A DNA stretch of 63,159 bases from an uncultured Anaerolineales bacterium (GTDB taxonomy: Bacteria > Chloroflexota > Anaerolineae > CG2-30-64-16). The notes under the pieces are model-generated. The model saw only the letters and a program-made list of their open reading frames with translations, was not told the origin of the DNA and ran no database searches. Positions 22,742 to 55,938 of this stretch are shown in pieces. Location: the NCBI GenBank assembly GCA_964387985.1, contig CAYLZG010000008.1, forward strand, positions 1-63,159. Direction: 5' to 3'. Each line of letters starts with the position of its first letter. Within the stretch, counting starts at the first letter, position 1. A program made the position numbers and the translations under genes.

Positions 22742-22770
22742 TTGACAGGCCGGATACTTTGCGCTATAGT
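22742..22770 (+). promoter_or_regulatory. near-consensus sigma-70 promoter TTGACA-N17-TATAGT for the PKS operon
   Basis: -35 at 22742-22747 and -10 at 22765-22770 with an exact 17-nt spacer. It lies ~80 nt upstream of the ATG at 22850, which is preceded by a GGAG RBS. The surrounding spacer is AT-rich. Confidence 0.55.
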
Positions 22771-22849: not shown

Positions 22850-25800
22850 ATGCGTGTATTCGAATTTGTAGTCCTGACTCCTTCTCCATTGAATGATCCT
22901 TCGGTGGCAATTGCTGCGAATCGTGCCGGGGCTCTGGGTGTGCTCAACCTGGAATTTGCTAACGATGGCGTTGCTGCCAGGCAGGCCATTTCCGAACTGA
23001 TCCGTTATACCGACAAAGAATGCGGCGTTCGGTTTGACAGTTCCTCCACTACATTTGTCAAGGAACTACTTCCCGCCATACCTGGGCAGATCACCGTCGC
23101 AATCCTTACTTGCTCTGATCCGAAGCAGTGGGAAGATCTGGTGCCTGTTCTCCACCAGCATGGGCTAAAGATTTGGCTGGAGGTCACGAACGTCTCCATG
23201 GCCAAGTACGCTGAAGCTCTGGACGTCGACGGTTTGATTGCAAAAGGACACGAGAGCACCGGCTGGATTCACGAAGAGACAACTTTCATCCTCCTCCAGC
23301 GCATAGTGGCTTCCACCGTGCTACCGGTCCTGGCATATGGCGGAATCGGGTTGCATAACGTCGCGGCGTGTAAAGTTGCCGGTGCTTCAGGTGTGGTGCT
23401 CGATACACAACTGGCCCTGACGCGCGAATCATCCCTCCCCGAGCCGGCTCGGGAGACAATTGCTGCCATGGATGGCAGTGAAACCCTCTGTCTCGGGGCC
23501 GAAGTCGGCCTCCAGTTCCGCAGTTACGCGCGCCCCGGCAGCAGTGTCGTGCAGCGACTGCGTGCGCTCGCCGTCGACTTGAGCCAAAATGGCGATATGC
23601 CGGAGAACAAGCAGATAGCCTGGCACAATGCGCTTACTGCCCAGGTGGGTTGGAACTCACCTGATGAGAACCTCTGGCCTCTCGGACAGGACGTGGCCTT
23701 TGCCGCGTCGCTTGCGCAAAGATACAGCACCGTCGGCGGCGTTCTCGAAGCGATGCGCGAGGCACTGAGAGAGCACCTGGATCAGGCGGCCGCTTCATCA
23801 CCTTGGGCGGAGAACACGCCGCTGGCCAAAGCCCACGGCTGCCGCTACCCGATCTTTCAGGGTCCCATGACCCGCGTGAGCGACACTGCTGAATTCGCCC
23901 TGCGGGTGGCAGAGAATGGAGGCCTGCCGTTCCTGGCCCTTGCCCTTATGCGTGGCCCCGATGTCGAGACTCTGCTCGCCGAGACCCAGCGTCTCTTGGG
24001 CGACCGACCGTGGGGGGTCGGGGTCTTGGGCTTTACACCGTTAGCACTCCGCCAGGAGCAGTTGCAGGTCATCCACAAGTTCCGGCCTGCGTGTGCGCTG
24101 ATTGCAGGCGGGAGACCCGACCAGGCGCAGGAGCTGGAGGCTAGTGGTATTGCCACCTATCTGCATGTCCCTTCGCCAGGTCTGCTACGCCTGTACCTCC
24201 AAGCCGGCGCGCGCCGCTTCATCTTCGAGGGCCTGGAGTGCGGAGGACATGTCGGTCCACGCAGCAGCTTTGTCCTCTGGGAAACAGCAGTAGAAATTAT
24301 CAGTAACGAGGTCCCTGCCGCTGATCTGAAGGATTGTGAAGTGATGTTTGCAGGAGGCATACATGATAGGGTCTCCGCGGCCATGGTTGCGACAGTCGCC
24401 GCGCCACTCGCTGCGCGGGGAGTATGCATTGGGGTGTTGATGGGCACTGCTTATCTATTTACCGAGGAGGTGGTCAGTTCGGGTGCCATCTTGCAGCGTT
24501 TCCAACAAGAAGCACTGCGCTGCAACACCACGGTGCGCCTCGAATCTGGCCCCGGATACGAAACTCGATGTGTTTCTACTCCCTTCGTGAATACCTTTAA
24601 CCAGGAGAAGCTGCGCTTGATTCGTGAGGGTAAGTCACCGCAGGACATACGCGAGGCTCTCGAGGAATTCAACGTGGGGCGTCTGCGCATTGCGGCAAAG
24701 GGTATCGCTCACCAGTCACAACCAGACCACAATTCTGCGGGTCGCAAATACGTGAGCGTCGGCGAGGAAGTGCAGCACCGAGATGGCCTTTATATGATTG
24801 GCCAGGTGGCCGCGCTACACAATCAGCCGTTCAGCATGGCCGAGCTGCATCACGAAGTCGCGGAGGAAAGCGCCGCCTTGTTAAGAGCGCTTGCCGACAT
24901 GGAATCCACACCGACGACGAAGGCAGCCCAAGCTCCGGCCCAGATCGCCATCGTGGGAATGAGCGCGATTCTGCCCAAGGCCGGCGATCTGCAGACATAC
25001 TGGGAGAACATTCTTAACGGCGTTGACGGCATCACCGAAATCCCCAAAGAGCGCTGGGATGCCGATCTGTACTACAGTACGGACCGCAATGCTCGCGACA
25101 AGATCTACTCGCGGTGGGGTGGGTTCATCGACGCAGTCACTTTCAATCCGGTGGAGTTCGGCATCCCTCCCAACTCGTTGTCATCGATTGACCCTATGCA
25201 TCTGCTGGCTCTTGTGGCCACGCGCGAGGCTCTAAGAGACGCCGGCTATCAGAGCCGCCCTTTTGAGCGGAGCCGGACGTCCGTCATCCTCGGTGCCAGC
25301 GGCGGCACAGGCGACCTCGGCGCAGACTATCTTCTCCGGTCAGGCCTCCCACTGCTGTTCGGCGATAAAGGGTTTGACCTCGCAGCCGGTGCCGGTGACG
25401 CGCTGCCGGAATGGACGGAGGATTCTTTCGCCGGACTGCTGCCGAACGTGTCGGCAGGCCGGATCGCCAACCGCTTCGACCTGGGTGGCGTGAACTTTGT
25501 GGTCGACGCGGCTTGCGCATCGTCACTGGCTGCCGTCCACCTGGCGGTCAGGGAACTGGTGGCCGGCAACAGTGACATTGTCATTACCGGCGGCGTCGAC
25601 ACGGCGCAGAATCCCTTCAGCTACCTGTGCTTCAGCAAGACACGGGCTCTCTCGCCCACGGGCCAACCGCGGGTCTTCGACGCAGAGGGCGATGGCATCG
25701 TGATCAGCGAGGGCGTGGCCATGCTAGTCCTCAAGCGACTGGCGGATGCGGAGCGAGACGGAGACCGCGTCTACGCGGTGATTCAGGCGGTGTCGGGCTC

Positions 25801-28800
25801 CAGCGACGGTCGGGCCATGGGAATGACGGCGCCGCGGCCAGAAGGCCAGATGCTTGCGCTGCGGCGGGCTTACGACGACGCGGGGTATGATCCCACCACC
25901 GTCGGCCTGTTCGAAGCTCATGGTACAGGCACAGTAGTCGGCGATCGCACCGAAGCCCAATCGCTGGCGCGATTCCTCGAATCCCACGGCGCGCAGCCCG
26001 GCAGACATGCTATCGGCTCAGTGAAATCGATGATCGGGCATACGAAGGCTACTGCAGGCGTAGCCGGTCTGGCAAAGGTCGCACTGTCGCTCTACCACAA
26101 AATCCTGCCGCCTACTCTGCGTGTGAGCCGGCCGAATCCCAATGTGCAGTTCGGAAAGACACCGCTCTATGTCAACTCCGAAATGCGACCGTGGCTCCGG
26201 GACCTGGCGGGTCATCCGCGACGCGCAGGCGTCAGCGCCTTTGGTTTCGGCGGCACCAACTTCCACGCTGCCGTAGAGGAATACACGGGGGACTTCCTCG
26301 CGAAGAAGCGGGAAGCTCCCAGCCAACAGTGGTCCAGTGAGCTCTTCCTGTGGAGAGCGGCTTCCAAACAGCAACTGGCGGAGCAGCTGCTTGTCCTGAT
26401 GCAAGGCATCGACCAGGGTGCCCAGCCGAGATTGCTCGACCTGGCCTACACCCTCGCGAAGCATGCCGCCGAAGCTCCCGCGCCTGGCCAGACGCTGGCC
26501 ATCGTTGCCGGCTCGCTCCCGGATCTGAGACAGAAACTAGCGTCTGCTGAGATAGGCCTTCGCCAGACCGGCCAGGATCCGATACGCCTTAATGCTGCGC
26601 AAGGAATCTACTTTAGCGACGAACCTTTGGCGCGAACAGGCAAGGTGGCTTTCTTATTCCCAGGTCAGGGTTCTCAGTACGTGAATATGCTGCGTGACCT
26701 GGCCGTCCATTTCCCTGAGGTACGCGAGACTTTCGAGCAGGCCGACCAAGAGCTGGCGCAACGCTTCCCCGGGAGATTGAGCAACATCATCTTCCCGCCC
26801 CCCGCGTTCACCGATCAGGAACGGCAACTGCAGTCCGACGAATTGACGCAGACCGATCGCGCGCAGCCGTCATTAGGAGCGGCAGGCGCCGCCTTGCTGC
26901 GGTTGCTGGAAACCCTGGGCGTGAAGCCTGAGATGGTTGCCGGCCACAGCTATGGCGAATATGTGGCGCTATGGGCTGCAGAAGTCATTGATTTCCGTAC
27001 CCTTGCCACACTGTCGGAGGCGCGGGGACGGTTCATTATCGAAGCCGCAGCGGGCGACCTGGGCACGATGGCCGCGGTGCGTGCCCCTGCGGATAAGATT
27101 GCCCCCATCATTGCAGCCGTCGACGGCGTGTGGGTCGCGAATCTGAACGCTCCTACCCAGACTGCCATATCCGGCACGCGTGATGGCATCGCTGAAGCCG
27201 TGCGCCGGCTCGAGGCTGCAGAAATCACCGTTCGGCATTTGCCGGTTGCGTGTGGCTTCCATTCGCCGCTCGTGGCGCCGGCCCGAGATAAGCTGGCAGA
27301 AGTGCTGGCGCAGCAGCAGTTCAAAGCCGCCGTCGTGCCGGTATTCTCCAACACAACCGCGAAGCCATATCCGACGGAGCCGGAGGCCATCCGTGCACTG
27401 TTGTCGGAGCATCTGGTGCGGCCCGTGCGTTTCGCAGATGAGATCGAGGCGATGTATGAGGCGGGAGCGCGCATTTTCGTCGAGATAGGACCGCGCAATG
27501 TACTGAGCGGACTCACCGCACTCACCCTAGGCGACCGGCCACATCTCGCAATCGTAACCGATTTCCCCGGTCGCGCAGGCTTGCCGAGTTTGCTCAACGC
27601 ACTGGGCCAGCTTGCAGCCCAGGCTGTACCTGTGCAGCTGGGACGGCTCTTCCGAGGACGCGGAGCCCACACGCTGGATTTGGTCAGGTTGGCACAGAAT
27701 TCGGGCAGGGAGAAGCCCTCGGCGACTACCTGGTTGGTAGACGGCGCCAGAGCCCGTCCCGCGGGAACGCCTGCTACCGCGAAGGGCAAGCCGGCTATCG
27801 AACTGCCGGCGGCGTCAGCAGCTGCTCCGTTCGCACCGCCCCAGCCAGCGCGCAACGGCCAAGATCCCAATCCTGCTATGGACCAGTTGATCGCACCACG
27901 GTTGCCGGCGTCTTCAACGGTAGAGAGGGCTGCATCAACAGGACAGCCTATGACATCTGCCGCAAACGAAAACTCGGCAGATGTGATGATACAGTTCCAG
28001 CACCTGATGAGTCGCTTTCTGGAAACCGAGCGCAATGTCATGTTGGCCTACCTCAGTGGCAACGGTGTCGCTCCGCAAGAGTCGCAGGCGAAACCGGAGA
28101 CGGCCCAGACCGCAGCGCCGCTTTCCGCCGTCCAGGCCCAGGCCACGGCACTGCCCGCACCTGTAACACGCGGGGCTGAATCCTCTATGCCAGTCGCCAC
28201 TGAGCGTGCGCTCACTGAACAGGCAACCACCGAGCCCCCGGCATCTGAACCGGTCGCGGTAAGCAATTCCGCAGCTGCCCCACTTGCGTTCGATAGAGAA
28301 GGCCTATCCCAACACCTCCTGAAAATCGTCAGTGAACGAACGGGCTACCCACCGGACATGCTGGATTTGGACGTGGATATCGAGGCCAAGCTGGGTATCG
28401 ACTCGATCAAACGCGTCGAGATACTGGGCGCCTTGCGCCGAAGTTATCTCCCGGCTGACCGGCAGTCAGACCCGGAAGCAATGGAGCGACTGACTGGCAT
28501 CAAGACCTTGGGCGGAATCATTGACTGGTTCGAACGCGCCCTGCAGAAATCAATCGTCCAGGCTAGCCAGGACAAAGAGGTTTTCCAGGGACCTCTCTCA
28601 CCAAGCGAGACCTCACGGCGCCTCGACGCGAGCGAGTACTTGTCTACCGAGTCTAACAAGCTTGGTCAGGCAAAGAAGATCGCCGCGGGGACAACCGTGC
28701 CCCGGTCTCTGGTTGCGATTCATCCCATCCCACCAGTTGGTAGCACAACAGAAGTGTTTCCTGCGGATCGCTGTATCGTCATTACGGTCGATGGTTTCGG

Positions 28801-31246
28801 TGTGGCCGAGATACTGGCCACGCAGATTCGCGGCCTGGGTGGCCGAGCGGTTCTGGTGAAAGCTATTAATAATCCGACCGATACGGTTCCGGGCGCGCAC
28901 TGCGTGGATCTGGATGACCCGTCACGCGTGGCGGAGTTCATCCAACGGTTGCGCGAGGAACACGGTCCAATCGGGGGCCTGGTGCACCTATTGCCCTTGC
29001 GGGAGCAGCAGGCCATGGCCAGCATGGACCTTGCTCTGTGGCGGGAGCAGGCACGGAGGCAGGTGAAGAGCCTGTTCTACCTTTCCCGCGCCGCAGCGAG
29101 CGATTTGAAGCAAGCAGGCAAGGGGGGCCCGGCCTGGCTCGTGGCCGTTTCGGCGATGGGTGGCAGCTTTGCGATGGACCCGACCGGCACACATCCATTT
29201 CTGCCACTCCAAGCTGGCCTGGCCGGACTCGTCAAGTCGCTGGCCCAGGAATGGCCCTCGGTACGCTGCAAAGCAATCGACGTAGATTTGAGGAATTCGC
29301 CAGCCAGTTTCACAGCATGGGTGCTGGCGGAGATGGTCGCAAACGACGGCATGGTCGAGGTAGGCTACGGTGCCGCAGGCCGCCAGACCTTACAGCCGGT
29401 AGCTACTCCGCTGGATGAAGCTGGAGCCCAATTCCTGAGCATCGAACAGGATTGGGTCATCCTGGTGACCGGGGGCGCACGCGGCATCACGGCCGAAGTG
29501 GTCTGCGAGCTCGCCGAGCATTACCAGCCAACTCTGCTGTTGGTGGGTTCCTCGCCACTGCCTGAGACCGAGGAATCGCCTCAGACCGCGGGGCTGACTT
29601 CTCCTCAGGAGCTCAAGCTGGCGCTGATGGCCCAGCTACGCCAAGCGGGCGAAGAGGTATCGCTGGCCAACGTGGAAACGGCATACGGACACCTCTTGAG
29701 GGCGCGCGAGATACGCCAAAATCTGGCACGTATTGAGCGGGCCGGAGCCAGAATCCGTTACTACCAGGTCGACGTGCGAGGCCAGGGTGCGCTGCGCACG
29801 TTGATCGCCGGGATCTACAGCGAGTACGGCCGGCTCGATGGCGTCATCCACGGGGCAGGGATCATCGAGGATAAACTCATCGAAGATAAGCTGCCTGAGT
29901 CATTCGATCGGGTGTTCGATACGAAGGCCGACAGCGCCTTTGCCTTGAGCCAGGCATTGCAGCCCGAGTCGCTCAGGTTCCTCGCCTTTTTCTCGTCAGC
30001 GGCCGGAGCATTCGGCAACCGCGGCCAGGCAGACTATGCGGCCACTAACGAAGTGGTCAACAAACTGGCCATGCTCCTTGACAGAAGTTGGCCAGGCCGC
30101 GTCGTCTCAATCAATTGGGGCCCATGGCTGAAGACCGGGATGGTCTCTAAGGAACTAGAGCAGCAGTTCGCGGCACGCGGCATCGAGCTAATCTCGCTGG
30201 CTGCCGGACGGAAGCTCTTTGAGCGCGAGCTGCGCCTGGGTCGAAAGGGTGAAGTGGAGGTCGTCCTGGCGGGCGGGACGTGGGGCGTTCCGTCACCAGA
30301 TGGAGTCACGTCGCACCGAGATGTGGGGGGAGGCAAGCTGGCCAAGGGATACGCGGCGCCGCTACTGGTGGGGGCTATCTTCTCCAGTGCCGAGATGGGC
30401 GCCGTCCGTGTGCTGCGGCAATTAGATCTGGCCCACGACCTCTACTTGAATGACCATCGGCTAGATGGGAAGCCTGTTTTCCCGTTCGCAATGGCGATGG
30501 AGTTAGTGTCGGAGGTGGCGCAGCATGGCTGGCCGGACCTGAAGGTCGGCTCATTGCGCGGGCTTCAGGTGCTGCGCGGTATCGTCTTGAGTAATGGCAA
30601 GCGGCCGATTGAGGTCTTCGCGAAAGCCGCGACTGCGCCGTCGCCCGACTGGAAGGGGATCGATGTCCACGTGGAAATCGCCGACCCCGACGAACCAGGC
30701 AAACCCTTCTACCGCGGGATCGTCGAGCTGGTAGACCGGCTGCCGCTTCCCCCGCAGCGGTCGCTCTCAAGGAACGGCCTGCAGCCGTTTCCCATGACCA
30801 TACCTGAGGCCTACGGTCGCTGGTTGTTCCATGGGCCGTTATTCCAGGGCATCGCGAATATACACGGCATTTCTCCAGAACTCATGGTGGCAACTTGTTT
30901 GCCATCGTCGCCAGGACGCTGTTTGACCGGAGAGACGGAGGGCACATGGTTGATCGATCCGGTTGTTTTCGATAGCGCCCTCCAGTTGATCATTCTCTGG
31001 ATGAGGACGTATCAAGATGCGACTCCCCTGCCATCCCGCTTCTCTAGATACAGAATCTTCGGACCGCCATCGGATGCTCCGGTTGAATGCTACCTGCGGG
31101 TCCCGGTGCAACCATTGAGCCCGGTCGTGTCGTTGGACATCGACTTTGTCGGCCGCGAGGGGCAACTGCTGGGCGTGCTTGAAGGCATGGAATGCCCTTC
31201 CAGCAAAGCCCTGAATCGACTCACCGGAGGCACAATCCGCTCCTGA
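22850..31246 (+). CDS. PUFA-synthase-like type I iterative PKS/FAS: NMO-like domain, NMO/PfaD-type ER, KS, AT, ACP, KR, DH
   Basis: 2798 aa. The first TIM-barrel NMO-like domain looks degenerate (KGHESTGW instead of GGH). The second is canonical (FQGPMTRVSD, ECGGH with His467 at 24248-24250). KS: DAACASS with Cys889 at 25514-25516, plus EAHGTGT and GHTKA. AT: GHSYGE with Ser1367 at 26948-26950. ACP: LGIDSIKRVEILG with Ser1852 at 28403-28405. KR: VTGGARGIT and QADYAATN. DH: H(2536)RLDGKPVFP. Confidence 0.95.
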   Translation: MRVFEFVVLTPSPLNDPSVAIAANRAGALGVLNLEFANDGVAARQAISELIRYTDKECGVRFDSSSTTFVKELLPAIPGQITVAILTCSDPKQWEDLVPVLHQHGLKIWLEVTNVSMAKYAEALDVDGLIAKGHESTGWIHEETTFILLQRIVASTVLPVLAYGGIGLHNVAACKVAGASGVVLDTQLALTRESSLPEPARETIAAMDGSETLCLGAEVGLQFRSYARPGSSVVQRLRALAVDLSQNGDMPENKQIAWHNALTAQVGWNSPDENLWPLGQDVAFAASLAQRYSTVGGVLEAMREALREHLDQAAASSPWAENTPLAKAHGCRYPIFQGPMTRVSDTAEFALRVAENGGLPFLALALMRGPDVETLLAETQRLLGDRPWGVGVLGFTPLALRQEQLQVIHKFRPACALIAGGRPDQAQELEASGIATYLHVPSPGLLRLYLQAGARRFIFEGLECGGHVGPRSSFVLWETAVEIISNEVPAADLKDCEVMFAGGIHDRVSAAMVATVAAPLAARGVCIGVLMGTAYLFTEEVVSSGAILQRFQQEALRCNTTVRLESGPGYETRCVSTPFVNTFNQEKLRLIREGKSPQDIREALEEFNVGRLRIAAKGIAHQSQPDHNSAGRKYVSVGEEVQHRDGLYMIGQVAALHNQPFSMAELHHEVAEESAALLRALADMESTPTTKAAQAPAQIAIVGMSAILPKAGDLQTYWENILNGVDGITEIPKERWDADLYYSTDRNARDKIYSRWGGFIDAVTFNPVEFGIPPNSLSSIDPMHLLALVATREALRDAGYQSRPFERSRTSVILGASGGTGDLGADYLLRSGLPLLFGDKGFDLAAGAGDALPEWTEDSFAGLLPNVSAGRIANRFDLGGVNFVVDAACASSLAAVHLAVRELVAGNSDIVITGGVDTAQNPFSYLCFSKTRALSPTGQPRVFDAEGDGIVISEGVAMLVLKRLADAERDGDRVYAVIQAVSGSSDGRAMGMTAPRPEGQMLALRRAYDDAGYDPTTVGLFEAHGTGTVVGDRTEAQSLARFLESHGAQPGRHAIGSVKSMIGHTKATAGVAGLAKVALSLYHKILPPTLRVSRPNPNVQFGKTPLYVNSEMRPWLRDLAGHPRRAGVSAFGFGGTNFHAAVEEYTGDFLAKKREAPSQQWSSELFLWRAASKQQLAEQLLVLMQGIDQGAQPRLLDLAYTLAKHAAEAPAPGQTLAIVAGSLPDLRQKLASAEIGLRQTGQDPIRLNAAQGIYFSDEPLARTGKVAFLFPGQGSQYVNMLRDLAVHFPEVRETFEQADQELAQRFPGRLSNIIFPPPAFTDQERQLQSDELTQTDRAQPSLGAAGAALLRLLETLGVKPEMVAGHSYGEYVALWAAEVIDFRTLATLSEARGRFIIEAAAGDLGTMAAVRAPADKIAPIIAAVDGVWVANLNAPTQTAISGTRDGIAEAVRRLEAAEITVRHLPVACGFHSPLVAPARDKLAEVLAQQQFKAAVVPVFSNTTAKPYPTEPEAIRALLSEHLVRPVRFADEIEAMYEAGARIFVEIGPRNVLSGLTALTLGDRPHLAIVTDFPGRAGLPSLLNALGQLAAQAVPVQLGRLFRGRGAHTLDLVRLAQNSGREKPSATTWLVDGARARPAGTPATAKGKPAIELPAASAAAPFAPPQPARNGQDPNPAMDQLIAPRLPASSTVERAASTGQPMTSAANENSADVMIQFQHLMSRFLETERNVMLAYLSGNGVAPQESQAKPETAQTAAPLSAVQAQATALPAPVTRGAESSMPVATERALTEQATTEPPASEPVAVSNSAAAPLAFDREGLSQHLLKIVSERTGYPPDMLDLDVDIEAKLGIDSIKRVEILGALRRSYLPADRQSDPEAMERLTGIKTLGGIIDWFERALQKSIVQASQDKEVFQGPLSPSETSRRLDASEYLSTESNKLGQAKKIAAGTTVPRSLVAIHPIPPVGSTTEVFPADRCIVITVDGFGVAEILATQIRGLGGRAVLVKAINNPTDTVPGAHCVDLDDPSRVAEFIQRLREEHGPIGGLVHLLPLREQQAMASMDLALWREQARRQVKSLFYLSRAAASDLKQAGKGGPAWLVAVSAMGGSFAMDPTGTHPFLPLQAGLAGLVKSLAQEWPSVRCKAIDVDLRNSPASFTAWVLAEMVANDGMVEVGYGAAGRQTLQPVATPLDEAGAQFLSIEQDWVILVTGGARGITAEVVCELAEHYQPTLLLVGSSPLPETEESPQTAGLTSPQELKLALMAQLRQAGEEVSLANVETAYGHLLRAREIRQNLARIERAGARIRYYQVDVRGQGALRTLIAGIYSEYGRLDGVIHGAGIIEDKLIEDKLPESFDRVFDTKADSAFALSQALQPESLRFLAFFSSAAGAFGNRGQADYAATNEVVNKLAMLLDRSWPGRVVSINWGPWLKTGMVSKELEQQFAARGIELISLAAGRKLFERELRLGRKGEVEVVLAGGTWGVPSPDGVTSHRDVGGGKLAKGYAAPLLVGAIFSSAEMGAVRVLRQLDLAHDLYLNDHRLDGKPVFPFAMAMELVSEVAQHGWPDLKVGSLRGLQVLRGIVLSNGKRPIEVFAKAATAPSPDWKGIDVHVEIADPDEPGKPFYRGIVELVDRLPLPPQRSLSRNGLQPFPMTIPEAYGRWLFHGPLFQGIANIHGISPELMVATCLPSSPGRCLTGETEGTWLIDPVVFDSALQLIILWMRTYQDATPLPSRFSRYRIFGPPSDAPVECYLRVPVQPLSPVVSLDIDFVGREGQLLGVLEGMECPSSKALNRLTGGTIRS

Positions 31247-31288
31247 CATACGAATGGCCGGCACTCAGATCACTGTGTCTCGATTTGG

Positions 31289-34200
31289 TTGGAGGATCGA
31301 GTGAGCGTGTTACGGATCAACCACACAAAAGATGAACAGCAGACAGGCGGCGACATCGCGATTATCGGCATGGCGTGTCTGTTTCCGGGCGCCCCTGACC
31401 TTGATACTTACTGGCAAAACATCATCTCGAAGGTGGATGCTGTCACCGATCCGCCGCCAGAATCCTGGGATCCGGCCGTGTTCTATGACCCTGAGTCAGA
31501 CTCAAATGACCGCGTCTACTGCAAACGCGGAGGTTTTATCAGTCCGCTTGCGTACTTCAATCCGGCAAAGCACGGCATCATGCCGAAGGCGGTAGAAGGT
31601 GGGGAGCCCGACCAGTGGCTGGCATTACAGGTCGCTCGCGCTGCCTTTGACGATGCTGGCTACGGCGATGAAATCCCCGAGCACAAGCACACGGCCGTTG
31701 TCATTGGCAAGGGCACGTATCTCAACCGGGGCAACCTTAGCGCGGCGCAACATGGGATCGTCACCGATCAGACGCTGGACATCCTGAAAACCCTGCATCC
31801 CGAGCTGACTGCCGAGGATCTCAAGGCGATTCGTCGTGAACTGAAGCAGCACTTGCCCCCATTCAACGCCGATACAGCCTCGGGGCTGATTCCTAATGTT
31901 CTGGCAGGGCGAATTGCCAACCGGCTAGACCTCATGGGCCCGAGCTACACAGTAGACGCTGCCTGTGCCTCATCTTTGATCGCCGTAGACATCGCCATGC
32001 GCGACCTGCAAACCGGCCGGTGTGATTTGGCCCTGGTTGGCGGCTCTCATGTTGTCACGCCGGTGCCGGTGCTCATGCTCTTCTGCCAGCTCGGTGCATT
32101 GTCGCGGCGGCAGGAGATCCGACCCTTCGACAAGAAGGCGGATGGTACAATCCTCGGCGAAGGTGTCGGCATGGTGGTGCTGAAGCGACGCGCCGATGCC
32201 GAGCGCGATGGGAACCGCATCTATGCGTTCATCAAGGGTGTAGGCACTGCCAGTGATGGCCGTGGTTTGAGCGTAATGGCTCCGCGCCTCGAAGGCGAGG
32301 TTGAGGCTATCGCCCGCGCGTATCGCAGCGCAGGCGTATCGCCCAACACGATAGGATTGATCGAAGCACACGGGACGGCGACATCGGTTGGAGACACCGC
32401 GGAAGTCAGGGCGCTAGCCCAGGTGTTTGGAGAGGAAGCCCGCACTTCGCGACGGATCGGCCTGGGCTCCGTCAAGTCGATGATCAGTCACCTGATGCCT
32501 GCCGCCGGCATTGCGGCGTTGATCAAGACTGCCCTCGCCCTCTACCACAGAGTACTACCTCCGACGCTCCATGTGGACGAACCTAACCCCGAGCTTCACC
32601 TGGAGAAGACACCCTTTTACATCAATACCGAGACCCGTCCGTGGATTCATGGTTCACAGGAGTCCCTCCGGCGAGCCGCCGTCAGTGCGTTCGGCTTTGG
32701 GGGGATCAATGCGCATGTGGTCTTAGAGGAAGCCGACCTTGCTGACGCGGCCGGTTTCCGCAGTCGCCAGTTGTCCTGGGATACCGAGGTTCTCCTTCTA
32801 TACGGCTCGTCCCGTGAGGACATTCTCGAGCAGGTAAGGGCGCTGGCTATGTTCCTTGAGAGAGCACCCGGTGTTGTCCTGCGCGACCTGGCCTATACAC
32901 TGAATACCACCCGTGCTAACGCTCCCGGGTCAACGTGCCTTGCTATTGTCGCATCGAGCATCCCCGAAGTGCAGGACAAGCTGGACCGGGCGCTGAAGAA
33001 ACTCTCTGATCCCCAGGTCGGTCAGATCAAGACGCGAGATGGAGTTTACTGGACCGCGCAACCTCTGAATTCGCCAGGGGCCGTCGCCTTCCTGTTCCCC
33101 GGAGAGGGCAGCCAGTACGTGAACATGCTGGCGGACCTCTGTATCCACTTCCCTGAGGTACGTGCTCAGTTCGATTTGATCGATCGTATATTTGCCGGAC
33201 ATGCTCGCAACTTCGTGCCCAGCGACTACCTTTTCCCGCCACCTGCTTTCGCTTCAGAAGCTCAGAACGCTGATGAGACGCGTATCTGGCAGATGGAATG
33301 TGCGGTCGAAGCCGTGCTGACTGCCAACCGAGCGCTGACTTTCTTACTTGACCGTTTGCATGTTCGGCCTTCAGCGGTCGTCGGGCACAGTACGGGAGAG
33401 TACTCAGCCATGCTGGCCTCCGGTATGATCCGGGCCGACGATGAGTCTACTTTACGCGAATTTGCGCTGGGCCTGAACAACTTACATCAGGAGTCGGCCG
33501 GAGATAGCGGTATCCCCGCCGCAGCGCTGCTGGCTGTTGCCGGTGATTCAGGGCATGTCGCTGCCACCATTGCAGAAGGCGAAGAACAGCTCTTCATCGC
33601 AATGGCCAACTGCCCGCACCAAACCGTCATTGCGGGGCCTGAGGCGGCGATCGCGAGAGCTGCCGAGAAGTTGCATGCTGCCGGACTTATCACAGAACGG
33701 TTGCCGTTCGACAGACCGTATCACACACCGCAATTCGAGGGAGCGGCTAAACGGCTCGAACCATTCTTTGCACGTTGGTTGGTTGCAGGTCGGGATATCG
33801 TTACCTATTCATGTACGACTGCGGCGCCTTTCCCAACTGACCTGGTCCAGGCGAGGCAGATCGCAGTCGATCATTGGCTACGTCCGGTTGCATTCTCGCA
33901 GACCATTGAAGCCATGTACGCCGATGGCGTGCGCATATTCATCGAGGTGGGATCGAAGGGCAATCTAAGTGCATTTGTGGATGACATTCTTCGCGGTCGC
34001 CCTCATGTGGCCGTTCCCGCCGACGTGATCCACCGTTCAGGAATCACGCAGTTGAACCACCTGGTGGCTCTGCTGGCAATTCATGCTGTGCCCATGCAGC
34101 TGGACTACCTTTATCGTCACCGTACCCCTGTCAAGCTGGACCTGGAGCGGCCGGAAGACCCGTATCATGCCGGCCCGACGCAGGGCGTTGGGATGAAACT

Positions 34201-36739
34201 TCCTACCGGCTGGCCTGCCATGCATCTGTCGGAGACTTCCGCCCAGCAACTCCTTGCGCGCCCAGAAGCCGGACCATTGACTAGTGCACCGGATTCATCC
34301 AGCGCCGTATCGATGCCTGTGCCCGAGTGGTCGGCGCCAATCCCGGCGACCAGGACCTTCCCGCGCACGCTCTCCAGCGAGCCTGCACCTGTGGCCGCAG
34401 AACAGGTGTTGAGCGCCCACTTTAGTACGATGGAGCGATTCCTGACGACACAGCAAGACGTCATGCAAGCATACCTGGCACAAAGCTCGCCTGGGAACGA
34501 CCCGCCAACCGTGGGCAGCACTCGACCGGATGACGAACAGCTGGTGTCCTCACCAGCTGCCTCGTCCACAGATGATTGCCCTCTTCCGCAGGCAACTGCC
34601 CCCCTGGCCGCTGATCAGTCGCAACGCTCAGATGGCATCAACTCACCGCCAGGAAGTGCACTCAGCGCTGATGCCGCGTCTGCGATCCTGGTACGGCTGG
34701 TTAGTGAGCGTACGGGATACCCCGCCGAGATGCTGGAGCTGAATCTGGATCTGGAGGCCAACCTGGGTATAGACTCTATCAAGCGCGTGGAGATTCTTGG
34801 AGCGTTCCGAAAAGAGATCGGCTTGGGTCAACCGTCTGATATGGAAGCTCTGGCCTCAGCCAAAACGCTGCAGGCGATCATCAATCTGCTGTCGTCTTCC
34901 GAGGCAGGTTCGCATGACCACGTACCGGCGGTTGTCTCACCTCCGACGGTCAGTAAAGCATTGCATCCAGGCATATCCGTATTGTCCGCACCGGTCGATC
35001 CGGGCTGGCCGGCTTCGCTGCCGTTGCTCGGACGTGTGATCGCATATCGACCAGGCAAAGAACTGACGGCTCGCTATGAGATCAACCCCGAAGAACACCG
35101 GTTTCTGCTCGACCACACGCTCGGCAGGCATGTATCGGTGGAAGATCCGGAACTCCGCGGCCTGCCTGTGATGCCTCTCACCATGAGCATGGAACTGCTG
35201 GCAGAGACGGCCGCGGCGTTGGCGCCCGGCCTTCTCCTGACCGGCATGCGCGACGTGCGGGCAACCCGTTGGATTATTGTTGACAGGGAACCCCTGACTC
35301 TGGAGCTTATCGCCACCCGAGAAGAGGGCGGTCCAGAAGAGCGCGTCCATGTACAGCTATATGAGGCGAGCGCAGGCAACGGTAGCGAGCGAACGATGCC
35401 CATTGTCGAAGGGACAATGCTCTACGCCGGAAGCTATCCGGCTCCTCCGGCACTCGCGCCCTTTGCGCCTCAGGACGCGCAACCTTCAAAGTGGACCTCT
35501 GACCAGTTGTACTCGGAAGTCATGTTTCACGGCCCGACGTTCCGTGGCGTTGTCTCGATAGATCGGACCGGCTCGGATGGCACGATAGCAACGCTGCTGG
35601 TCCTCCACAAACAGGGGCTGCTTCGGTCCCTGCCGCAGCCCGCGCTGATAATCGATCCCGTGCTGCTCGACCAGCCTGGCCAAGTCGTTGGCTTCTGGAC
35701 AGCTGAACATCTTGACACCGGACGCGTGATATTTCCCTTTCACTTGCGGGCGCTTCACTTCTACGCGGCGATGCCGGAGGCGGGCCGGCGTCTGGAATGC
35801 CGAGCGCGTATTGATCTGATCGGTGACCTGCAGGTGCGATCAGACCTGGATGTGGTGGACCCGGATCGCGGTTTGTTGCTTCGGTTTGAGCATTGGGAGG
35901 ATCGGCGTTTTGAGCTGCCAGGCGCATTCTTCCGCTTCTTGATGTCGCCGCGAGATGTGATGTTGAGCCAACCCTGGCTTAGCGGAGAGCAACTACAAGC
36001 GGATCCCGGGCACCAGTTGTACCGGGTTGATCTGGACGCATTTGCGGAGGATTTCTTCACCTCATCCGGCGGCATCTGGCAACAGATGCTCGCAGGACTG
36101 ATTCTGAGCCGTCGCGAGAGAGTGCTCTGGCACAGTCTGACCAAGCCTGAACGGCAGCGCGTCGAATGGCTGTTGGGCCGCCTGGCAGCCAAGGACGCCG
36201 TGCGCTCCTCAGTTAAGGAACGCCATGGTTTGGTGTTGGCACCGGCAGATATCGAGATCCTGCCGGATAACGCGGGACGCCCGGTTGTGGCCGGTAACTG
36301 GCTCCAGCGGCTTGGGGTTCAATACCAAGTTTCAATCGCACACACGGCACGCGTGGCAATCGCTGGGGCTTCTGATTCTGTTGCAGGGATTGGGGTGGAT
36401 GTCGAGCATGCCGAGCACATGCGGGCAGAAGTGAGTGCAGTCGCGTTCACATCCTATGAGCAGGCTCTGCTGCACAGGGAAGGACTGCCCAGCGAGGAAC
36501 TGTGGCCCTTGCGACTCTGGTGTGCCAAAGAAGCGGCAGCGAAAGCGGTCGGATATGGAATGCAGGGCGGGCCGCAGAGCCTGGAAGCCAAAGAGCTGGA
36601 CCCAGCATGTGGGGTGGTTGAGATCGCGCTGACAGGAGCGCTGCTCAGAATGGTACCGCAGGCAAGCGGCAGCATCCTGAGCGTGGGCACTGCGCGACAG
36701 GGAGAGTTCATAGCGGCACTATCCGTCCTCCACTCATAA
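31289..36739 (+). CDS. second PKS subunit: KS, AT, ACP, DH and a C-terminal Sfp-type phosphopantetheinyl transferase
   Basis: 1816 aa in the longest frame; the likely real start is the GTG at 31301 or 31307, after GGAGGA. KS: DAACASS with Cys226 at 31964-31966, plus EAHGTAT. AT: GHSTGEY with Ser701 at 33389-33391. ACP: LGIDSIKRVEILG with Ser1163 at 34775-34777. DH: LLDHTLGRHV...PVMPLTMSMELLAE. PPTase: GIGVDVEHAE ... WCAKEAAAKA. I found no KR Rossmann motif. Confidence 0.9.
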   Translation: MEDRVSVLRINHTKDEQQTGGDIAIIGMACLFPGAPDLDTYWQNIISKVDAVTDPPPESWDPAVFYDPESDSNDRVYCKRGGFISPLAYFNPAKHGIMPKAVEGGEPDQWLALQVARAAFDDAGYGDEIPEHKHTAVVIGKGTYLNRGNLSAAQHGIVTDQTLDILKTLHPELTAEDLKAIRRELKQHLPPFNADTASGLIPNVLAGRIANRLDLMGPSYTVDAACASSLIAVDIAMRDLQTGRCDLALVGGSHVVTPVPVLMLFCQLGALSRRQEIRPFDKKADGTILGEGVGMVVLKRRADAERDGNRIYAFIKGVGTASDGRGLSVMAPRLEGEVEAIARAYRSAGVSPNTIGLIEAHGTATSVGDTAEVRALAQVFGEEARTSRRIGLGSVKSMISHLMPAAGIAALIKTALALYHRVLPPTLHVDEPNPELHLEKTPFYINTETRPWIHGSQESLRRAAVSAFGFGGINAHVVLEEADLADAAGFRSRQLSWDTEVLLLYGSSREDILEQVRALAMFLERAPGVVLRDLAYTLNTTRANAPGSTCLAIVASSIPEVQDKLDRALKKLSDPQVGQIKTRDGVYWTAQPLNSPGAVAFLFPGEGSQYVNMLADLCIHFPEVRAQFDLIDRIFAGHARNFVPSDYLFPPPAFASEAQNADETRIWQMECAVEAVLTANRALTFLLDRLHVRPSAVVGHSTGEYSAMLASGMIRADDESTLREFALGLNNLHQESAGDSGIPAAALLAVAGDSGHVAATIAEGEEQLFIAMANCPHQTVIAGPEAAIARAAEKLHAAGLITERLPFDRPYHTPQFEGAAKRLEPFFARWLVAGRDIVTYSCTTAAPFPTDLVQARQIAVDHWLRPVAFSQTIEAMYADGVRIFIEVGSKGNLSAFVDDILRGRPHVAVPADVIHRSGITQLNHLVALLAIHAVPMQLDYLYRHRTPVKLDLERPEDPYHAGPTQGVGMKLPTGWPAMHLSETSAQQLLARPEAGPLTSAPDSSSAVSMPVPEWSAPIPATRTFPRTLSSEPAPVAAEQVLSAHFSTMERFLTTQQDVMQAYLAQSSPGNDPPTVGSTRPDDEQLVSSPAASSTDDCPLPQATAPLAADQSQRSDGINSPPGSALSADAASAILVRLVSERTGYPAEMLELNLDLEANLGIDSIKRVEILGAFRKEIGLGQPSDMEALASAKTLQAIINLLSSSEAGSHDHVPAVVSPPTVSKALHPGISVLSAPVDPGWPASLPLLGRVIAYRPGKELTARYEINPEEHRFLLDHTLGRHVSVEDPELRGLPVMPLTMSMELLAETAAALAPGLLLTGMRDVRATRWIIVDREPLTLELIATREEGGPEERVHVQLYEASAGNGSERTMPIVEGTMLYAGSYPAPPALAPFAPQDAQPSKWTSDQLYSEVMFHGPTFRGVVSIDRTGSDGTIATLLVLHKQGLLRSLPQPALIIDPVLLDQPGQVVGFWTAEHLDTGRVIFPFHLRALHFYAAMPEAGRRLECRARIDLIGDLQVRSDLDVVDPDRGLLLRFEHWEDRRFELPGAFFRFLMSPRDVMLSQPWLSGEQLQADPGHQLYRVDLDAFAEDFFTSSGGIWQQMLAGLILSRRERVLWHSLTKPERQRVEWLLGRLAAKDAVRSSVKERHGLVLAPADIEILPDNAGRPVVAGNWLQRLGVQYQVSIAHTARVAIAGASDSVAGIGVDVEHAEHMRAEVSAVAFTSYEQALLHREGLPSEELWPLRLWCAKEAAAKAVGYGMQGGPQSLEAKELDPACGVVEIALTGALLRMVPQASGSILSVGTARQGEFIAALSVLHS

Positions 36740-36762
36740 AGCATTATCGCGAAAGGTAACCT

Positions 36763-37041
36763 ATGAAGCGCAGCTATGAAGAAGTCCGATCAGATATCGT
36801 GCTGTTGTTGAGGCGGCTGGCTGATGATTGGGAGTACGATGGTGAGATTACCGAGGACACGCGTATGTTGGCCGATCTCGGATTTGAGTCGCTGGATGTG
36901 GTAGTTCTAGGTTCTGTAATTCAGGAACACTATGACCAAGTGCTGCCCTTCCCCGAGTTTTTCGCAGAAATTGGGCAGCGAGCCGTCGGTGACGTTACCG
37001 TTGGTGAATGGGTAACCTTTGTCTGCGAGCATCTATCATGA
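36763..37041 (+). CDS. stand-alone acyl carrier protein
   Basis: 92 aa, acidic, four-helix-sized. The attachment motif is DLGFES(43)LDVV, with the Ser at 36889-36891. Its stop overlaps the next start (ATGA at 37038-37041). Confidence 0.8.
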   Translation: MKRSYEEVRSDIVLLLRRLADDWEYDGEITEDTRMLADLGFESLDVVVLGSVIQEHYDQVLPFPEFFAEIGQRAVGDVTVGEWVTFVCEHLS

Positions 37042-38642
37042 GAAAGAAGACTGTCCTGATCGGGCTCGATGGCGCGACCTTCGCAGCTCTTGACCCACTA
37101 ATGGACGCCGGTGTGATGCCCTTTCTCAAGGGATTCATGGCGTCAGGGGCCCGTGCGCCACTGCACACAGTGATCCCGGCGTTAACACCGCCAGCCTGGA
37201 CCTCATTGATGACCGGGCGTAGCCCTGGTCAGCATGGCGTATTTGACTTCTTCCGCAAAGTCGCACCGGGAAGTCAGCACGTTCGGTTCAATACCTCGCA
37301 TGACGTAGCAGTTGAGACGATCTGGTCTATGGCCAACCGCTACGGTAAGCAGGTAATAGTTCTCAATTTCCCACTGATGTTTCCGGCTCCTCCTCTGGAT
37401 GGTTACATCGTGCCAGGCTGGATGCCGTGGCGCCAGCTGAGACATGGCTGCCACCCATCTGGGTTATTCGATCGACTTAAGGCTTTGCCAGGCTTCGACG
37501 CACGTGAGCTGGCCATGGATATGACCTTGGAGGAAAAGGCGCTCGAGGGCTGTGATGCCGGGGAGTACGAGGACTGGATACAACTGCATATCCGGCGCGA
37601 GCAACAGTGGCTTCAGATTCTCAGAATGCTCATGCGAGAAGAGCTCTGGGACCTGACCGCAGTCCTCTTTGACGGGGTGGATAAGCTGCAGCACCTCTTC
37701 TGGCGCTTCCTGGACCCGAAACTGGTCCCGGCTGCGCTGCCTGCAGATGAGGAACGCGTGCGGCAAAGCCTCCTGGGTTACTTCCGGCAACTGGATCGCA
37801 TATTGGCGGAGATCATCGAACTCGCAGGAGAGGGCGCGACGGTCGTCCTGGCGTCCGACCACGGCTTTGGTGCTCAGACTGGGACCTTTTTTGTGAACAC
37901 CTGGCTTGAGCAGAACGGCTTCCTGGCATGGGCCGATGGAAAGGTGGTCACACCCGAGCCCGACAAACTAGGAATCTCACAACTCGCGCGTCACGTTTAT
38001 CAGCTCGATTGGTCGCGCACCATGGCCTACGCTTCCACACCCAGCAGCAACGGAATTCACATTGTACAGGATGACGGCAGCGGAATTGGTGTTCCACCCA
38101 CACACTACCAGGACTTCCGAACCCAGTTGATGACAGAACTACTGAGCTTCCGGGATTCTGCAACCGGGCGCCCGGTGGTCTCGCGCATCTGGACGCGTGA
38201 GGAGGCGTTTTCCGGGCCGTTTATGAATCTGGCGCCCGACCTAACTCTGCTTCTGAGCGACGGCGGTCTGCTGTCGATCCTGGCTTCGGATGCTCCTTAT
38301 AAAACGAGACCCCAACCGAGCGGCACACATGGACTGGAAGGCGTTTTTGTGGCGGCGGGGCCGGGGATACGAAAGGGCGTGGTCCTGCCCCAACTGCGGA
38401 TCCTCGACGTGGCGCCGGTGGTGCTCCATAGCCTCGGTCTGCCGGTCCCCGTCGAGTTGGAAGGACGCGTGCCAGCTCAGGCTTATGAAAACAACATAGG
38501 GGTGGACTACGCCCGCCTCTCGTTGCCTTCAGTTCAGCAGCCATCATCAGCTGAGTCTGCTAAAAACGGAGGCGCAGAACTCACTGAAGAAGATGAAAGA
38601 GAACTTCTCAGGCGAATGCGTGCGCTTGGATACATTTCGTAA
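37038..38642 (+). CDS. alkaline-phosphatase-superfamily enzyme (type I phosphodiesterase / nucleotide pyrophosphatase-like)
   Basis: The ATG at 37038 is translationally coupled to the ACP gene. Core metal and nucleophile motifs are present: VLIGLDGATF, ALTPPAWTSLMTG (Thr nucleophile context) and LASDHGFG. Confidence 0.75.
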   Translation: MRKKTVLIGLDGATFAALDPLMDAGVMPFLKGFMASGARAPLHTVIPALTPPAWTSLMTGRSPGQHGVFDFFRKVAPGSQHVRFNTSHDVAVETIWSMANRYGKQVIVLNFPLMFPAPPLDGYIVPGWMPWRQLRHGCHPSGLFDRLKALPGFDARELAMDMTLEEKALEGCDAGEYEDWIQLHIRREQQWLQILRMLMREELWDLTAVLFDGVDKLQHLFWRFLDPKLVPAALPADEERVRQSLLGYFRQLDRILAEIIELAGEGATVVLASDHGFGAQTGTFFVNTWLEQNGFLAWADGKVVTPEPDKLGISQLARHVYQLDWSRTMAYASTPSSNGIHIVQDDGSGIGVPPTHYQDFRTQLMTELLSFRDSATGRPVVSRIWTREEAFSGPFMNLAPDLTLLLSDGGLLSILASDAPYKTRPQPSGTHGLEGVFVAAGPGIRKGVVLPQLRILDVAPVVLHSLGLPVPVELEGRVPAQAYENNIGVDYARLSLPSVQQPSSAESAKNGGAELTEEDERELLRRMRALGYIS

Positions 38643-38673
38643 GGAATCTGTCACCAGAACCGCAGGAGGAGTC

Positions 38674-44879: not shown

Positions 44880-44883
44880 GAGT

Positions 44884-46203: not shown

Positions 46204-46209
46204 GGGATC

Positions 46210-46983: not shown

Positions 46984-47002
46984 GAGCGATGGAAGGACCC
47001 GC

Positions 47003-48367: not shown

Positions 48368-48540
48368 CGTGCCGAGTAATCACAGTTGAGGTGTCGATCA
48401 GCGGAGCATTTCGACAGCGAGGTTGCTGCGTGATAACCGGAGCCAGCGAAGTCCAGACGTGCGGTCGAGGCCCCCGAGCTAGGGTAAGAGAACGTGTTTG
48501 CAGCAAGGCAGATTGAGACAATTTCCTGAACAGGTGATTG

Positions 48541-52611: not shown

Positions 52612-52614
52612 GTC

Positions 52615-53622: not shown

Positions 53623-53629
53623 TTGGCCC

Positions 53630-54601: not shown

Positions 54602-54604
54602 TCT

Positions 54605-55921: not shown

Positions 55922-55938
55922 GGTGGCCGGAGAAAGCG

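Follow-up and report, generated by a model that had tools for sequence, protein, structure and literature searches.

The window analysed here is a stretch of 63,159 nucleotides (contig CAYLZG010000008.1, positions 1 to 63,159 of the forward strand, in GenBank assembly GCA_964387985.1) from an uncultured Anaerolineales bacterium of the Chloroflexota, and the system in question is a forward-strand gene cluster that opens with two large multidomain synthase subunits and a discrete acyl carrier protein (ACP). Domain calls for both subunits come from Pfam and NCBIfam. Subunit 1 (22850..31246, 2798 aa) is composed of a degenerate enoyl reductase (pseudo-ER), an enoyl reductase (ER), a ketosynthase (KS), a malonyl-type acyltransferase (AT), an ACP, a ketoreductase (KR), and a dehydratase (DH); subunit 2 (31289..36739) is 1816 aa when read from a TTG codon (the public gene call starts at a GTG at 31301, giving 1812 aa) and has the order KS, putative long-chain AT, ACP, DH, and phosphopantetheinyl transferase (PPTase). 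The discrete ACP (36763..37041, + strand) is 92 aa, with Ser43 in GFESLD and a Pfam PP-binding score of 23.7 bits. An initial annotation, made from the sequence alone, had given these domain orders together with the free ACP, and the Pfam and NCBIfam calls on the open reading frames (ORFs) at these positions bear them out. It had also called the genes a secondary lipid synthase, and this general call holds. We have high confidence that the cluster encodes a two-subunit secondary-lipid synthase of the ArsA/ArsD-related clade that comprises Types M/N/O of a 2011 catalogue; the layout itself is not new, having been listed there and having a characterised cousin in ArsA/ArsD.

By sequence, subunit 1 corresponds to the ArsA-like, or "fused PfaD-PfaA", type of protein. 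More than 100 full-length proteins of 2700-2900 aa are homologous to it (47-72% identity) and have an identical Pfam set, the few with named sources being from Candidatus Brocadia, Nitrospirota, Binatia, Chromatiales, and Stellaceae metagenome-assembled genomes (MAGs). Its KS (KS1, 24941..26125, aa 698-1092) matches the N- and C-terminal ketoacyl-synt domains of Pfam and carries the triad C889/H1024/H1064. The AT (AT1, 26651..27508, aa 1268-1553) is of the malonyl-CoA:ACP transacylase type, with GQGSQ, Q1339, GHS1367YGE, R1392, and GFHS, and the malonyl-specific pair is nearly invariant, Gln being present in 119 of 119 homologues and Arg in 118 of 119, along with GQGSQ and xAFHS. The region that follows contains a single PP-binding domain (ACP1, 28313..28444, aa 1822-1865, LGIDS1852IKRVEILG), and the number of ACP motifs in homologues ranges from one to at least four. 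The KR (29459..30127, aa 2204-2426) has TGGARGIT and Y2396 and scores 129.7 bits against the Pfam KR model; upstream of it is a structural pseudo-KR subdomain with weak adh_short-like Pfam matches. The protein ends in a PS-type DH (DH1, 30365..31204, aa 2506-2785; Pfam PS-DH and PKS_DH_N) with H2536 in HxxxGxxxxP and D2708xxxQ. A DH1 match was obtained in 56 of 84 related loci in a loose tblastn count, and ArsA homologues lack this C-terminal domain.

Two N-terminal barrels precede KS1 in subunit 1. The first is a degenerate NMO/FabK-like TIM barrel (22850..23779, aa 1-310; 51 bits against Pfam NMO) and the second an active barrel of the flavin mononucleotide (FMN) type (23807..24799, approximately aa 320-650; 65.5 bits), and either passes the Pfam NMO gathering score of 28 bits when scanned alone. 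The initial annotation had described the second barrel as a PfaD-type ER, that is, the trans-acting ER of pfa systems moved to the N-terminus. The sequence does not support that label, both barrels being FabK-like: the FabK model TIGR03151 scores 77.5 bits against the first and 71 bits against the second, the solved structure nearest to the active barrel is Thermotoga maritima FabK (5gvh), and neither barrel had a pfaD-family match at E < 0.01, the only matches being to the FabK model and FabK crystal structures. In function, the active barrel is probably equivalent to the PfaD-family enoyl reductase. The same annotation had correctly seen that the first barrel is degenerate and has no GGH motif. 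At the position of the GGH of the second barrel (H467), the first has W139 in KGHESTGW, and its motif I, TPSPLN, is without the FMN-contacting Met. This loss is family-wide, as Trp, Arg, or Leu replaces the catalytic His in all but one of approximately 106 homologues and the loss extends to ArsA homologues, and the His of the second barrel is kept in 113 of 113. A recent tandem duplication as the origin of the pair was rejected, as the two barrels share just 19% identity (E 0.19). TIM-barrel ERs work as dimers, and the proposed catalytic residue is a His (PMC13311796). Because the loss of the His is family-wide and TIM-barrel ERs are dimeric, the dead first barrel is, by analogy, most likely a built-in structural partner of the active ER, so that the two would reproduce the FabK/PfaD dimer within a single polypeptide.

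For subunit 2, too, over 100 full-length homologues exist (45-66% identity), including proteins in Caldilineae, Chloroflexota, Herpetosiphonaceae, Acidobacteriota, Nitrospiria, and Deltaproteobacteria MAGs. Its KS (KS2, 31352..32575, aa 22-429; Pfam) has the triad C226/H361/H401. Both KS triads are thus intact, as first annotated, and no chain-length factor (CLF) was found in the cluster ORFs scanned with Pfam: each subunit has a single ketoacyl-synt match, and in subunit 2 the KS-AT linker directly follows KS2. The AT of subunit 2 (AT2, 33089..33991, aa 601-901) carries GEGSQ, GHS701TGE, and RPYHT, and has V673 in place of the malonyl-specific Gln and A726 in place of the Arg. Neither residue occurs in any of 120 homologues, which have V/I/F/A and A/I/L/V there instead. 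PfaB, the long-acyl terminal acyltransferase of polyunsaturated fatty acid (PUFA) synthases, is also without the Gln/Arg pair and barely handles malonyl-CoA (PMC12895367). Because the pair is missing from all 120 homologues as it is from PfaB, AT2 is most likely a long-chain acyltransferase and not an extender loader; it retains the His of the GHSxG motif, where bacterial PfaB has a Tyr. ACP2 (34688..34891, aa 1134-1201; PP-binding 29.6 bits) contains LGIDS1163IKRVEILG, a motif found in 104 of 120 homologues. The carrier signature LGIDSIKRVEILG, which had been noted as common to both ACPs, is indeed present in ACP1 (at S1852) and ACP2 (at S1163) alike.

The C-terminal part of subunit 2 contains a PS-type, ArsD-like DH (DH2, 35021..35908, approximately aa 1245-1540) with H1276, D1461xxxQ, and FHGP (PS-DH 47.8 bits when scanned alone), followed by an Sfp-type PPTase (36086..36736; ACPS at aa 1700-1767, 55.9 bits) with GIGVD1704VE and WCAK1747EA. 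In its KS-AT-ACP start and in the C-terminal PPTase behind its DH, subunit 2 resembles the domain order of the enediyne polyketide synthases (PKSE), which are likewise iterative type I enzymes; it could therefore be read as a KR-less enzyme of the enediyne or polyene type that makes a conjugated polyene, and a terminal PPTase had at first been taken as a hallmark of PKSE. The evidence makes this highly improbable. PKSE is a single KS-AT-ACP-KR-DH-PPTase protein that acts with a hotdog thioesterase and an accessory cassette, whereas the window has two subunits, one of them bearing an active ER. A Pfam scan of the linker between AT2 and ACP2 gave no match even at E ≤ 1, so there is no cryptic KR in it, a possibility that had been left open when the absence of a KR was first noted. 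No hotdog thioesterase or other enediyne cassette domain was found in the cluster ORFs (37008-58964) scanned with Pfam, which agrees with the original statement that such accessory genes are missing, and for neither KS-AT region do the 60 best solved-structure matches listed include the enediyne PKS DynE8. Moreover, residues 1242-1812 of subunit 2 are 32% identical (E 3e-66) to the ArsD homologue of Beijerinckia. The DH His, DxxxQ, and FHGP as well as the G-D-E and W..KE..K motifs of the PPTase are invariant in a 12-sequence alignment that includes two ArsD homologues. Because the DH-PPTase region is homologous to ArsD and its catalytic residues are invariant, the PPTase tail is assigned on sequence grounds to the ArsD lineage and not to PKSE. 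DH2 is the dehydratase that is conserved in the clade.

The Pfa systems offer a closer parallel. PfaABCDE, like the window, combines an iterative protein of the order KS-AT-ACP-KR-(PS-DH), a further KS that serves the late cycles, an Arg-less second AT (PfaB) for long chains, a TIM-barrel ER with FMN, and a dedicated PPTase. Subunit 1 scores 1189.6 bits against the NCBIfam model TIGR02813 (omega_3_PfaA), over its cut-off of 1010.1 bits, and this score, the shared ACP motif, and the broadly Pfa-like pairing of KS and AT would fit a genuine PUFA synthase that supplies eicosapentaenoic, docosahexaenoic, or other polyunsaturated acids to membrane phospholipids. We nevertheless regard a PUFA synthase as very unlikely because there is no CLF, no FabA-type DH/isomerase pair, and just one ACP per subunit; no FabA-family match was found in either subunit at E ≤ 0.01, and the DHs are of the PS type only. 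The first reading of the locus had likewise set it apart from the canonical pfaA-D layout by the lack of tandem ACPs, a KS-CLF, and a FabA-type DH pair. In addition, the ER is nearer to FabK than to PfaD by sequence and is fused in cis, as is the PPTase, the downstream tailoring cassette is foreign to pfa operons, and the closest characterised relative, ArsA/ArsD, yields saturated chains according to the sources on that system given below.

The layout of the window genes was described as unusual in the initial annotation, and this does not stand. In Table S1 of Shulse and Allen (2011), secondary-lipid synthases of Types M, N, and O are given as three consecutive genes, [ER-KS-MAT-ACP1-3-KR], [KS-AT-PPTase], and [ACP] (PMC3098273). 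In that catalogue, Type M is represented by Frankia (three strains), Renibacterium, Actinosynnema, and S. avermitilis, Type N by Chryseobacterium and also by Chitinophaga, for which the second gene is given as KS-PPTase, and Type O by Dinoroseobacter, Gloeobacter, and Parvularcula, the last with the first two genes only and no ACP gene; the products of all three types were uncharacterised (PMC3098273). On the characterisation of these types we found only the 2011 catalogue and a 2026 survey in which the Renibacterium-type synthase is still "uncharacterized" (PMC13291983), and the ladderane and anammox literature yielded no link to the window synthase. All three genes of the catalogued order are present in the window. 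Compared with Types M/N/O as listed, window subunit 1 has one ACP and an extra C-terminal PS-DH, subunit 2 has an embedded ACP and a PS-DH between AT and PPTase, and the downstream cassette adds an NPP-type phosphodiesterase, a short-chain dehydrogenase/reductase (SDR), a propeller protein, and a sulfotransferase; the 2011 table does not annotate the PS-type DH, the embedded ACP, or the pseudo-ER (PMC3098273). A scan of one genome per species in the Genome Taxonomy Database with the DH-PPTase alignment confirmed relatives of this didomain in at least 457 species genomes, the best among the matches listed being from an uncultured Anaerolineae bacterium (49%). Together with the more than 100 full-length homologues of each subunit, this places the locus within a widespread family.

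Type P of the same catalogue is the characterised ars system of Azotobacter and Beijerinckia, given there as ER-KS-MAT-ACP-KR plus "PPTase" (PMC3098273). Three secondary sources (PMC3098273, PMC6274091, PMC4824345) describe ArsA/ArsD as making C22-C26 saturated fatty acids from malonyl-CoA, with chains that are kept on the ArsA ACP and handed straight to type III polyketide synthases (PKSs), and with the PPTase supplied by ArsD. The ArsA/ArsD pair of Azotobacter vinelandii is, like the predicted window enzyme, an iterative self-priming machine resembling a fatty acid synthase (FAS), and we made the comparison through homologues on Beijerinckia indica plasmid pBIND02 (locus L003) and in Methylosinus sp. 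C49 (L004). The ArsA homologues at these loci have the order NMO-NMO-KS-AT-ACP(1-2)-KR with no DH, and the ArsD homologues consist of PS-DH plus PPTase. The alignment of subunit 1 with the Beijerinckia ArsA homologue begins at residue 6, so that it takes in the degenerate barrel, and shows 43% identity over approximately 2000 aa. The DH-PPTase is fused to KS-AT-ACP in the window, where it forms the C-terminal 575 aa of subunit 2, whereas it is a separate protein in ars; the ars system has one KS, one AT, no free ACP, and no phosphodiesterase/hydrolase cassette, whereas the window has two KSs and two ATs.

The homology to ArsA and ArsD, together with the pseudo-ER-ER-KS-AT-ACP-KR and DH-PPTase proteins that the genuine ars-like loci (L003, L004, L079, and L084) share with the window, raises the question of whether the window chain could itself be handed straight to type III PKSs to give alkylresorcinols or alkylpyrones. 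Such phenolic lipids are a very improbable product because no type III PKS was found among the window ORFs scanned with Pfam, whereas two type III PKS genes (arsB and arsC) lie between arsA and arsD in L003 and L004; KS2-AT2, the free ACP, and the phosphodiesterase/hydrolase cassette are in turn missing from ars loci, and the KS of the ArsA type forms its own sub-clade in the KS tree. The initial annotation had also entertained the possibility that the genes belong to an already characterised family with the same architecture: the architecture is catalogued and has a characterised relative, and the exact two-KS form is one without a known product.

The KS tree was built by neighbor-joining from 111 KS domains of the window and the 84 loci, has no bootstrap or other support values, and is without Pfa, Hgl, PKSE, and Ols references and without sequences of the Shulse and Allen type strains. 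One clade comprises all KS domains of the subunit 1 type, including the ArsA-type KS of L003, L004, L079, and L084 as a sub-clade and the KS of a Streptomyces plasmid (L085), and all KS domains of the subunit 2 type form its sister clade. A KS of a modular PKS from L004 falls outside both clades. A PDB sequence search with the two KS-AT regions did not discriminate families, as generic KS domains of cis- and trans-AT PKSs were on top; the sole Pfa reference among the PDB matches was 6riw, which we take to be the PfaC KS-CLF didomain, with 235 and 262 bits for the two regions.

Several observations on relatives of the two subunits were made in passing. The Streptomyces plasmid was the best plasmid hit (H2) and was expected to carry a PKSE; it proved to carry a Type-M-like cluster with the order pseudo-ER-ER-KS-AT-ACP-KR / KS-AT-DH-PPTase / ACP / hydrolase / glycosyltransferase / methyltransferase. 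At a Candidatus Brocadia locus (L002; GCA_021646415.1, SOEU01000001.1, 10001-28484), the gene after the subunit 1 homologue encodes an AT-PPTase protein that has neither KS nor DH, and further on lie two genes for B12-binding radical SAM proteins, a 100-aa ORF, a flippase gene, and two genes for NPP-like phosphodiesterases; the usual two-KS form is found in another Brocadia MAG (L059). Distant KS-AT-DH-PPTase proteins (25-35% identical to subunit 2) are encoded in Kiritimatiellia, Lentisphaerae, and Verrucomicrobia (L068-L083) and branch further out in the KS tree. Because there is no subunit 1 homologue within 10 kb upstream of them, they look like a separate lineage of PPTase-terminated synthases.

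Downstream of the synthase, the genes from the free ACP on share its strand and either overlap slightly or are separated by short gaps. The free ACP is followed by an NPP-type phosphodiesterase of the alkaline-phosphatase superfamily (37008..38642, likely start 37038; Pfam Phosphodiest), predicted to be cytoplasmic, an alpha/beta hydrolase (38593..39495; GHSLGA, Pfam Abhydrolase_1) that is a candidate thioesterase or acyltransferase, a classical SDR (39515..40387, 290 aa) whose nearest relatives are long-chain ketone reductases such as KdsR, below the cut-off, a GT1-family (MGT/EryCIII-like) glycosyltransferase (40405..41694), and a 718-aa protein (41691..43847) with an N-terminal signal or anchor, Kelch-like beta-propeller repeats, and an FN3-like segment. 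The last had no match in Pfam or NCBIfam and gave only a weak Kelch match in the PDB. A tailoring and transport block (43866..49998; Pfam) comes next, consisting of a sulfotransferase, a TolB-like propeller with a signal sequence, an S-adenosylmethionine-dependent methyltransferase, and a secreted LIP-family lipase (43866-48367), and ending with an MFS_2 transporter. An unassigned ORF (50092-51348) separates this block from genes for an ABC-2 permease, two DrrA-like ABC ATPases, and two HlyD-family adaptors (51475..57402; Pfam), which are a candidate lipid exporter whose membership in the cluster is inferred; ABC transporter and adaptor genes also directly follow arsD in L003 and L004.

To determine which of these genes travel with the synthase, we compared the window proteins by tblastn with the 84 related loci, 43 of which have a KS of the subunit 2 type and at least 4 kb of downstream sequence. 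The alpha/beta hydrolase is the most conserved accessory gene (34 of the 43 syntenic loci, and also in the Streptomyces plasmid), followed by the phosphodiesterase (31), the free ACP at the same position (27), and the SDR and the 718-aa propeller protein (21 each). The methyltransferase is present in 8 of the 43 loci, the glycosyltransferase in 7, the MFS_2 transporter in 2, and the sulfotransferase in 1. Glycosyltransferase synteny was seen in L008, L012, L014, L018, L026, L028, L029, and L035, and L085 also has the gene. The sulfotransferase, TolB-like propeller, methyltransferase, and lipase are mostly specific to the window cluster. Wherever the genes are present, the order ACP, phosphodiesterase, hydrolase, SDR is that of the window, the glycosyltransferase and propeller genes being swapped in some loci. 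This order is conserved in Anaerolineae, Caldilineae, Ardenticatenales, Thermodesulfobacteriota/Deltaproteobacteria, and Solirubrobacteraceae, and the cassette as a whole, with or without the glycosyltransferase and ending in the propeller gene, occurs in Chloroflexota, Acidobacteriota, Thermodesulfobacteriota, Actinomycetota, and Nitrospirota; it also follows the synthase genes in L005, L008, L012, L014, L026, L028, and L035. At the locus of the closest relative (L001), the two subunit genes are followed by those for the ACP and the phosphodiesterase, beyond which the genes are unrelated. A Halieaceae variant has an extra amidohydrolase and CoA-transferases, which make the product no clearer. 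The best matches of the methyltransferase are BioC, Mtf2, and phthiotriol methyltransferase; a dicarboxylate product was considered and dropped, as the BioC-like match and the BioH-like match of the hydrolase are generic and the methyltransferase is so seldom syntenic.

These counts bear on two further readings of the product. A sulfotransferase and hydrolases encoded downstream could suggest a terminal olefin formed as by CurM or Ols, in which a beta-hydroxyl is sulfonated and the chain hydrolysed and subjected to decarboxylative elimination to give a long-chain 1-alkene. We give this hardly any credence because the sulfotransferase (43866-44879) is discrete, four genes past the discrete ACP and not part of a sulfotransferase-thioesterase didomain, and is not conserved, the conserved partners being the phosphodiesterase, hydrolase, and SDR.

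The second is a heterocyst-glycolipid-like, or methyl-ketone, route in which KS2 would carry out a last, unreduced condensation and the hydrolase would free a beta-keto acid that decarboxylates; the SDR would then reduce the ketone to a secondary alcohol, and the glycosyltransferase and then the sulfotransferase would convert it to an alkyl glycoside. Subunit 2 has no KR of its own, and a hydrolase, a KdsR-like SDR, and a GT1 enzyme are encoded downstream in conserved order, with ABC/HlyD export genes beyond. The Hgl system (HglE/D/C/A/B plus HglT and DevBCA) resembles what is proposed for the window in having a Pfa-like synthase and a long, mostly saturated chain that is glycosylated and exported to the envelope, and both a GT1 gene and ABC-2/HlyD genes are present in the window (Pfam). 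The latter may be comparable to the DevBCA exporter of heterocyst glycolipids. In the Hgl system KS/CLF-AT is divided among separate genes, KR and ER stand alone, and an ACP-reductase (HglB) serves for release as an alcohol, none of which occurs in the window (PMC3098273 for the Hgl layout); no NAD_binding_4 or HglB-type reductase domain was found in the Pfam scan, the 290-aa classical SDR being the only candidate. Moreover, ACP2 could be served by the subunit 1 KR if the two proteins form a complex, the route has no role for DH2 or the phosphodiesterase, the glycosyltransferase is seldom syntenic, and the scheme is entirely inferential. We therefore consider the methyl-ketone route unlikely as it stands, and it remains a live variant of the model that we prefer.

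That model, which we consider fairly probable, is a self-priming, two-subunit, iterative type I FAS-like secondary-lipid synthase whose chain is tailored and exported. By analogy with ArsD, the C-terminal Sfp-type PPTase would prime ACP1, ACP2, and the discrete ACP to their holo forms. AT1, whose Gln/Arg pair is seen in the sequence, would load malonyl units, and KS1, the KR, the PS-type DH, and the FMN-type ER would carry out fully reducing cycles that give a long, essentially saturated chain, as suggested by the domain set and by ArsA/ArsD; the pseudo-ER would serve as structural partner of the active ER. KS2, which is intact and has its own ACP2, may take over late elongation like the PfaC KS in PUFA synthases, and AT2 may pass the elongated chain from one carrier to another, or to the discrete ACP, in a PfaB-like manner. 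The hydrolase, phosphodiesterase, SDR, and glycosyltransferase, and in this cluster also the sulfotransferase and methyltransferase, would release and decorate the chain, as their synteny suggests, and the product would probably be a glycosylated envelope lipid exported via the MFS and ABC/HlyD systems. We have moderate confidence that the chain is long and saturated and low confidence in a glycolipid as the end product.

Several points weigh against the synthase model just described. No product is known for any two-KS member of the family, which the 2026 survey calls uncharacterised (PMC13291983). The roles suggested for KS2, AT2, DH2, and the free ACP are drawn from motifs and analogy, and the KS tree that places both KSs has neither bootstrap values nor reference sequences from Pfa, Hgl, PKSE, and Ols enzymes. 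The glycosyltransferase is syntenic in so few loci that glycosylation may be confined to a sub-clade. The Pfam scan of the cluster ORFs revealed no thioester reductase, and a fatty-alcohol route of the heterocyst-glycolipid type is therefore not available. The model also gives the NPP-type phosphodiesterase no specific step despite its strong conservation.

The phosphodiesterase is 56-70% identical in more than 120 clusters across phyla, and its conservation exceeds that of the synthases. It has no signal peptide, and its metal ligands and the nucleophile Thr60 are present, the core residues being D21, T60, D284/H285, and H441. An AlphaFold2 model (pLDDT 84) has as its top Foldseek matches the Xanthomonas (Xac) NPP, ENPP6, ENPP1, and phosphonoacetate hydrolase (PhnA). 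We know of no precedent for an NPP-type phosphodiesterase in FAS or PKS pathways. It is a rather unlikely possibility, which we raise tentatively, that the ACP, the phosphodiesterase, and the alpha/beta hydrolase constitute a new mode of releasing or head-grouping a carrier-bound chain, leading to an undescribed class of long-chain envelope lipids; the phosphodiesterase might then cleave or transfer at the phosphopantetheine phosphodiester or add a phospho-head group. If this were true, the lipid class would be common to Chloroflexota, Acidobacteriota, Nitrospirota, Planctomycetota (including the anammox genus Brocadia), Thermodesulfobacteriota, Actinomycetota, and Gammaproteobacteria.

Upstream of the cluster, a putative sigma-70-like promoter (TTGACA-17-TATAGT, 22742..22770, + strand), recognised by consensus match only (11 of 12 positions), lies approximately 80 nt before subunit 1, and the ATG of subunit 1 at 22850 has a GGAG 6 nt upstream. 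Divergently oriented from subunit 1 are genes for an extracytoplasmic function (ECF) sigma factor and a FecR-like anti-sigma factor that ends in an Ig-like/glucodextranase-B domain (20465-22533, - strand); this pair is not found upstream in the closest relative. Further away, two giant surface-type proteins are encoded on the reverse strand (9716-17983), one of 1229 aa with five cohesin domains plus SdrD-B and SpaA and one of 1169 aa with a type I dockerin and bacterial TSP3 repeats; a cohesin protein of 367 aa (13233-14336, - strand) adds to these cellulosome-like modules in a genome of approximately 60% GC. At the other end of the window, a 1320-aa ORF (59125-63087, - strand) has no significant Pfam domain, its only match being to a MopE-like metal-binding motif below the threshold. 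Scanning the window for Rfam families and tRNAs gave no match.

What is new at this locus are the FabK-like nature of the barrels, the family-wide dead first barrel, the PfaB-like AT2, and the downstream cassette conserved across phyla. The synthase family has been listed since 2011 and is uncharacterised in the 2026 survey, and its relatives are mostly found in uncultured lineages from soil, sediment, and wastewater. The non-malonyl, PfaB-like AT2, the dead ER barrel as a possible dimer partner, and the conserved NPP-type phosphodiesterase provide experimental handles, and the remaining interest lies in the product of the family and in the conserved cassette of ACP, NPP-type phosphodiesterase, and hydrolase. 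If the product is a structural envelope lipid, it would represent a widespread class that is missing from inventories of bacterial membranes and from environmental lipid biomarker schemes.

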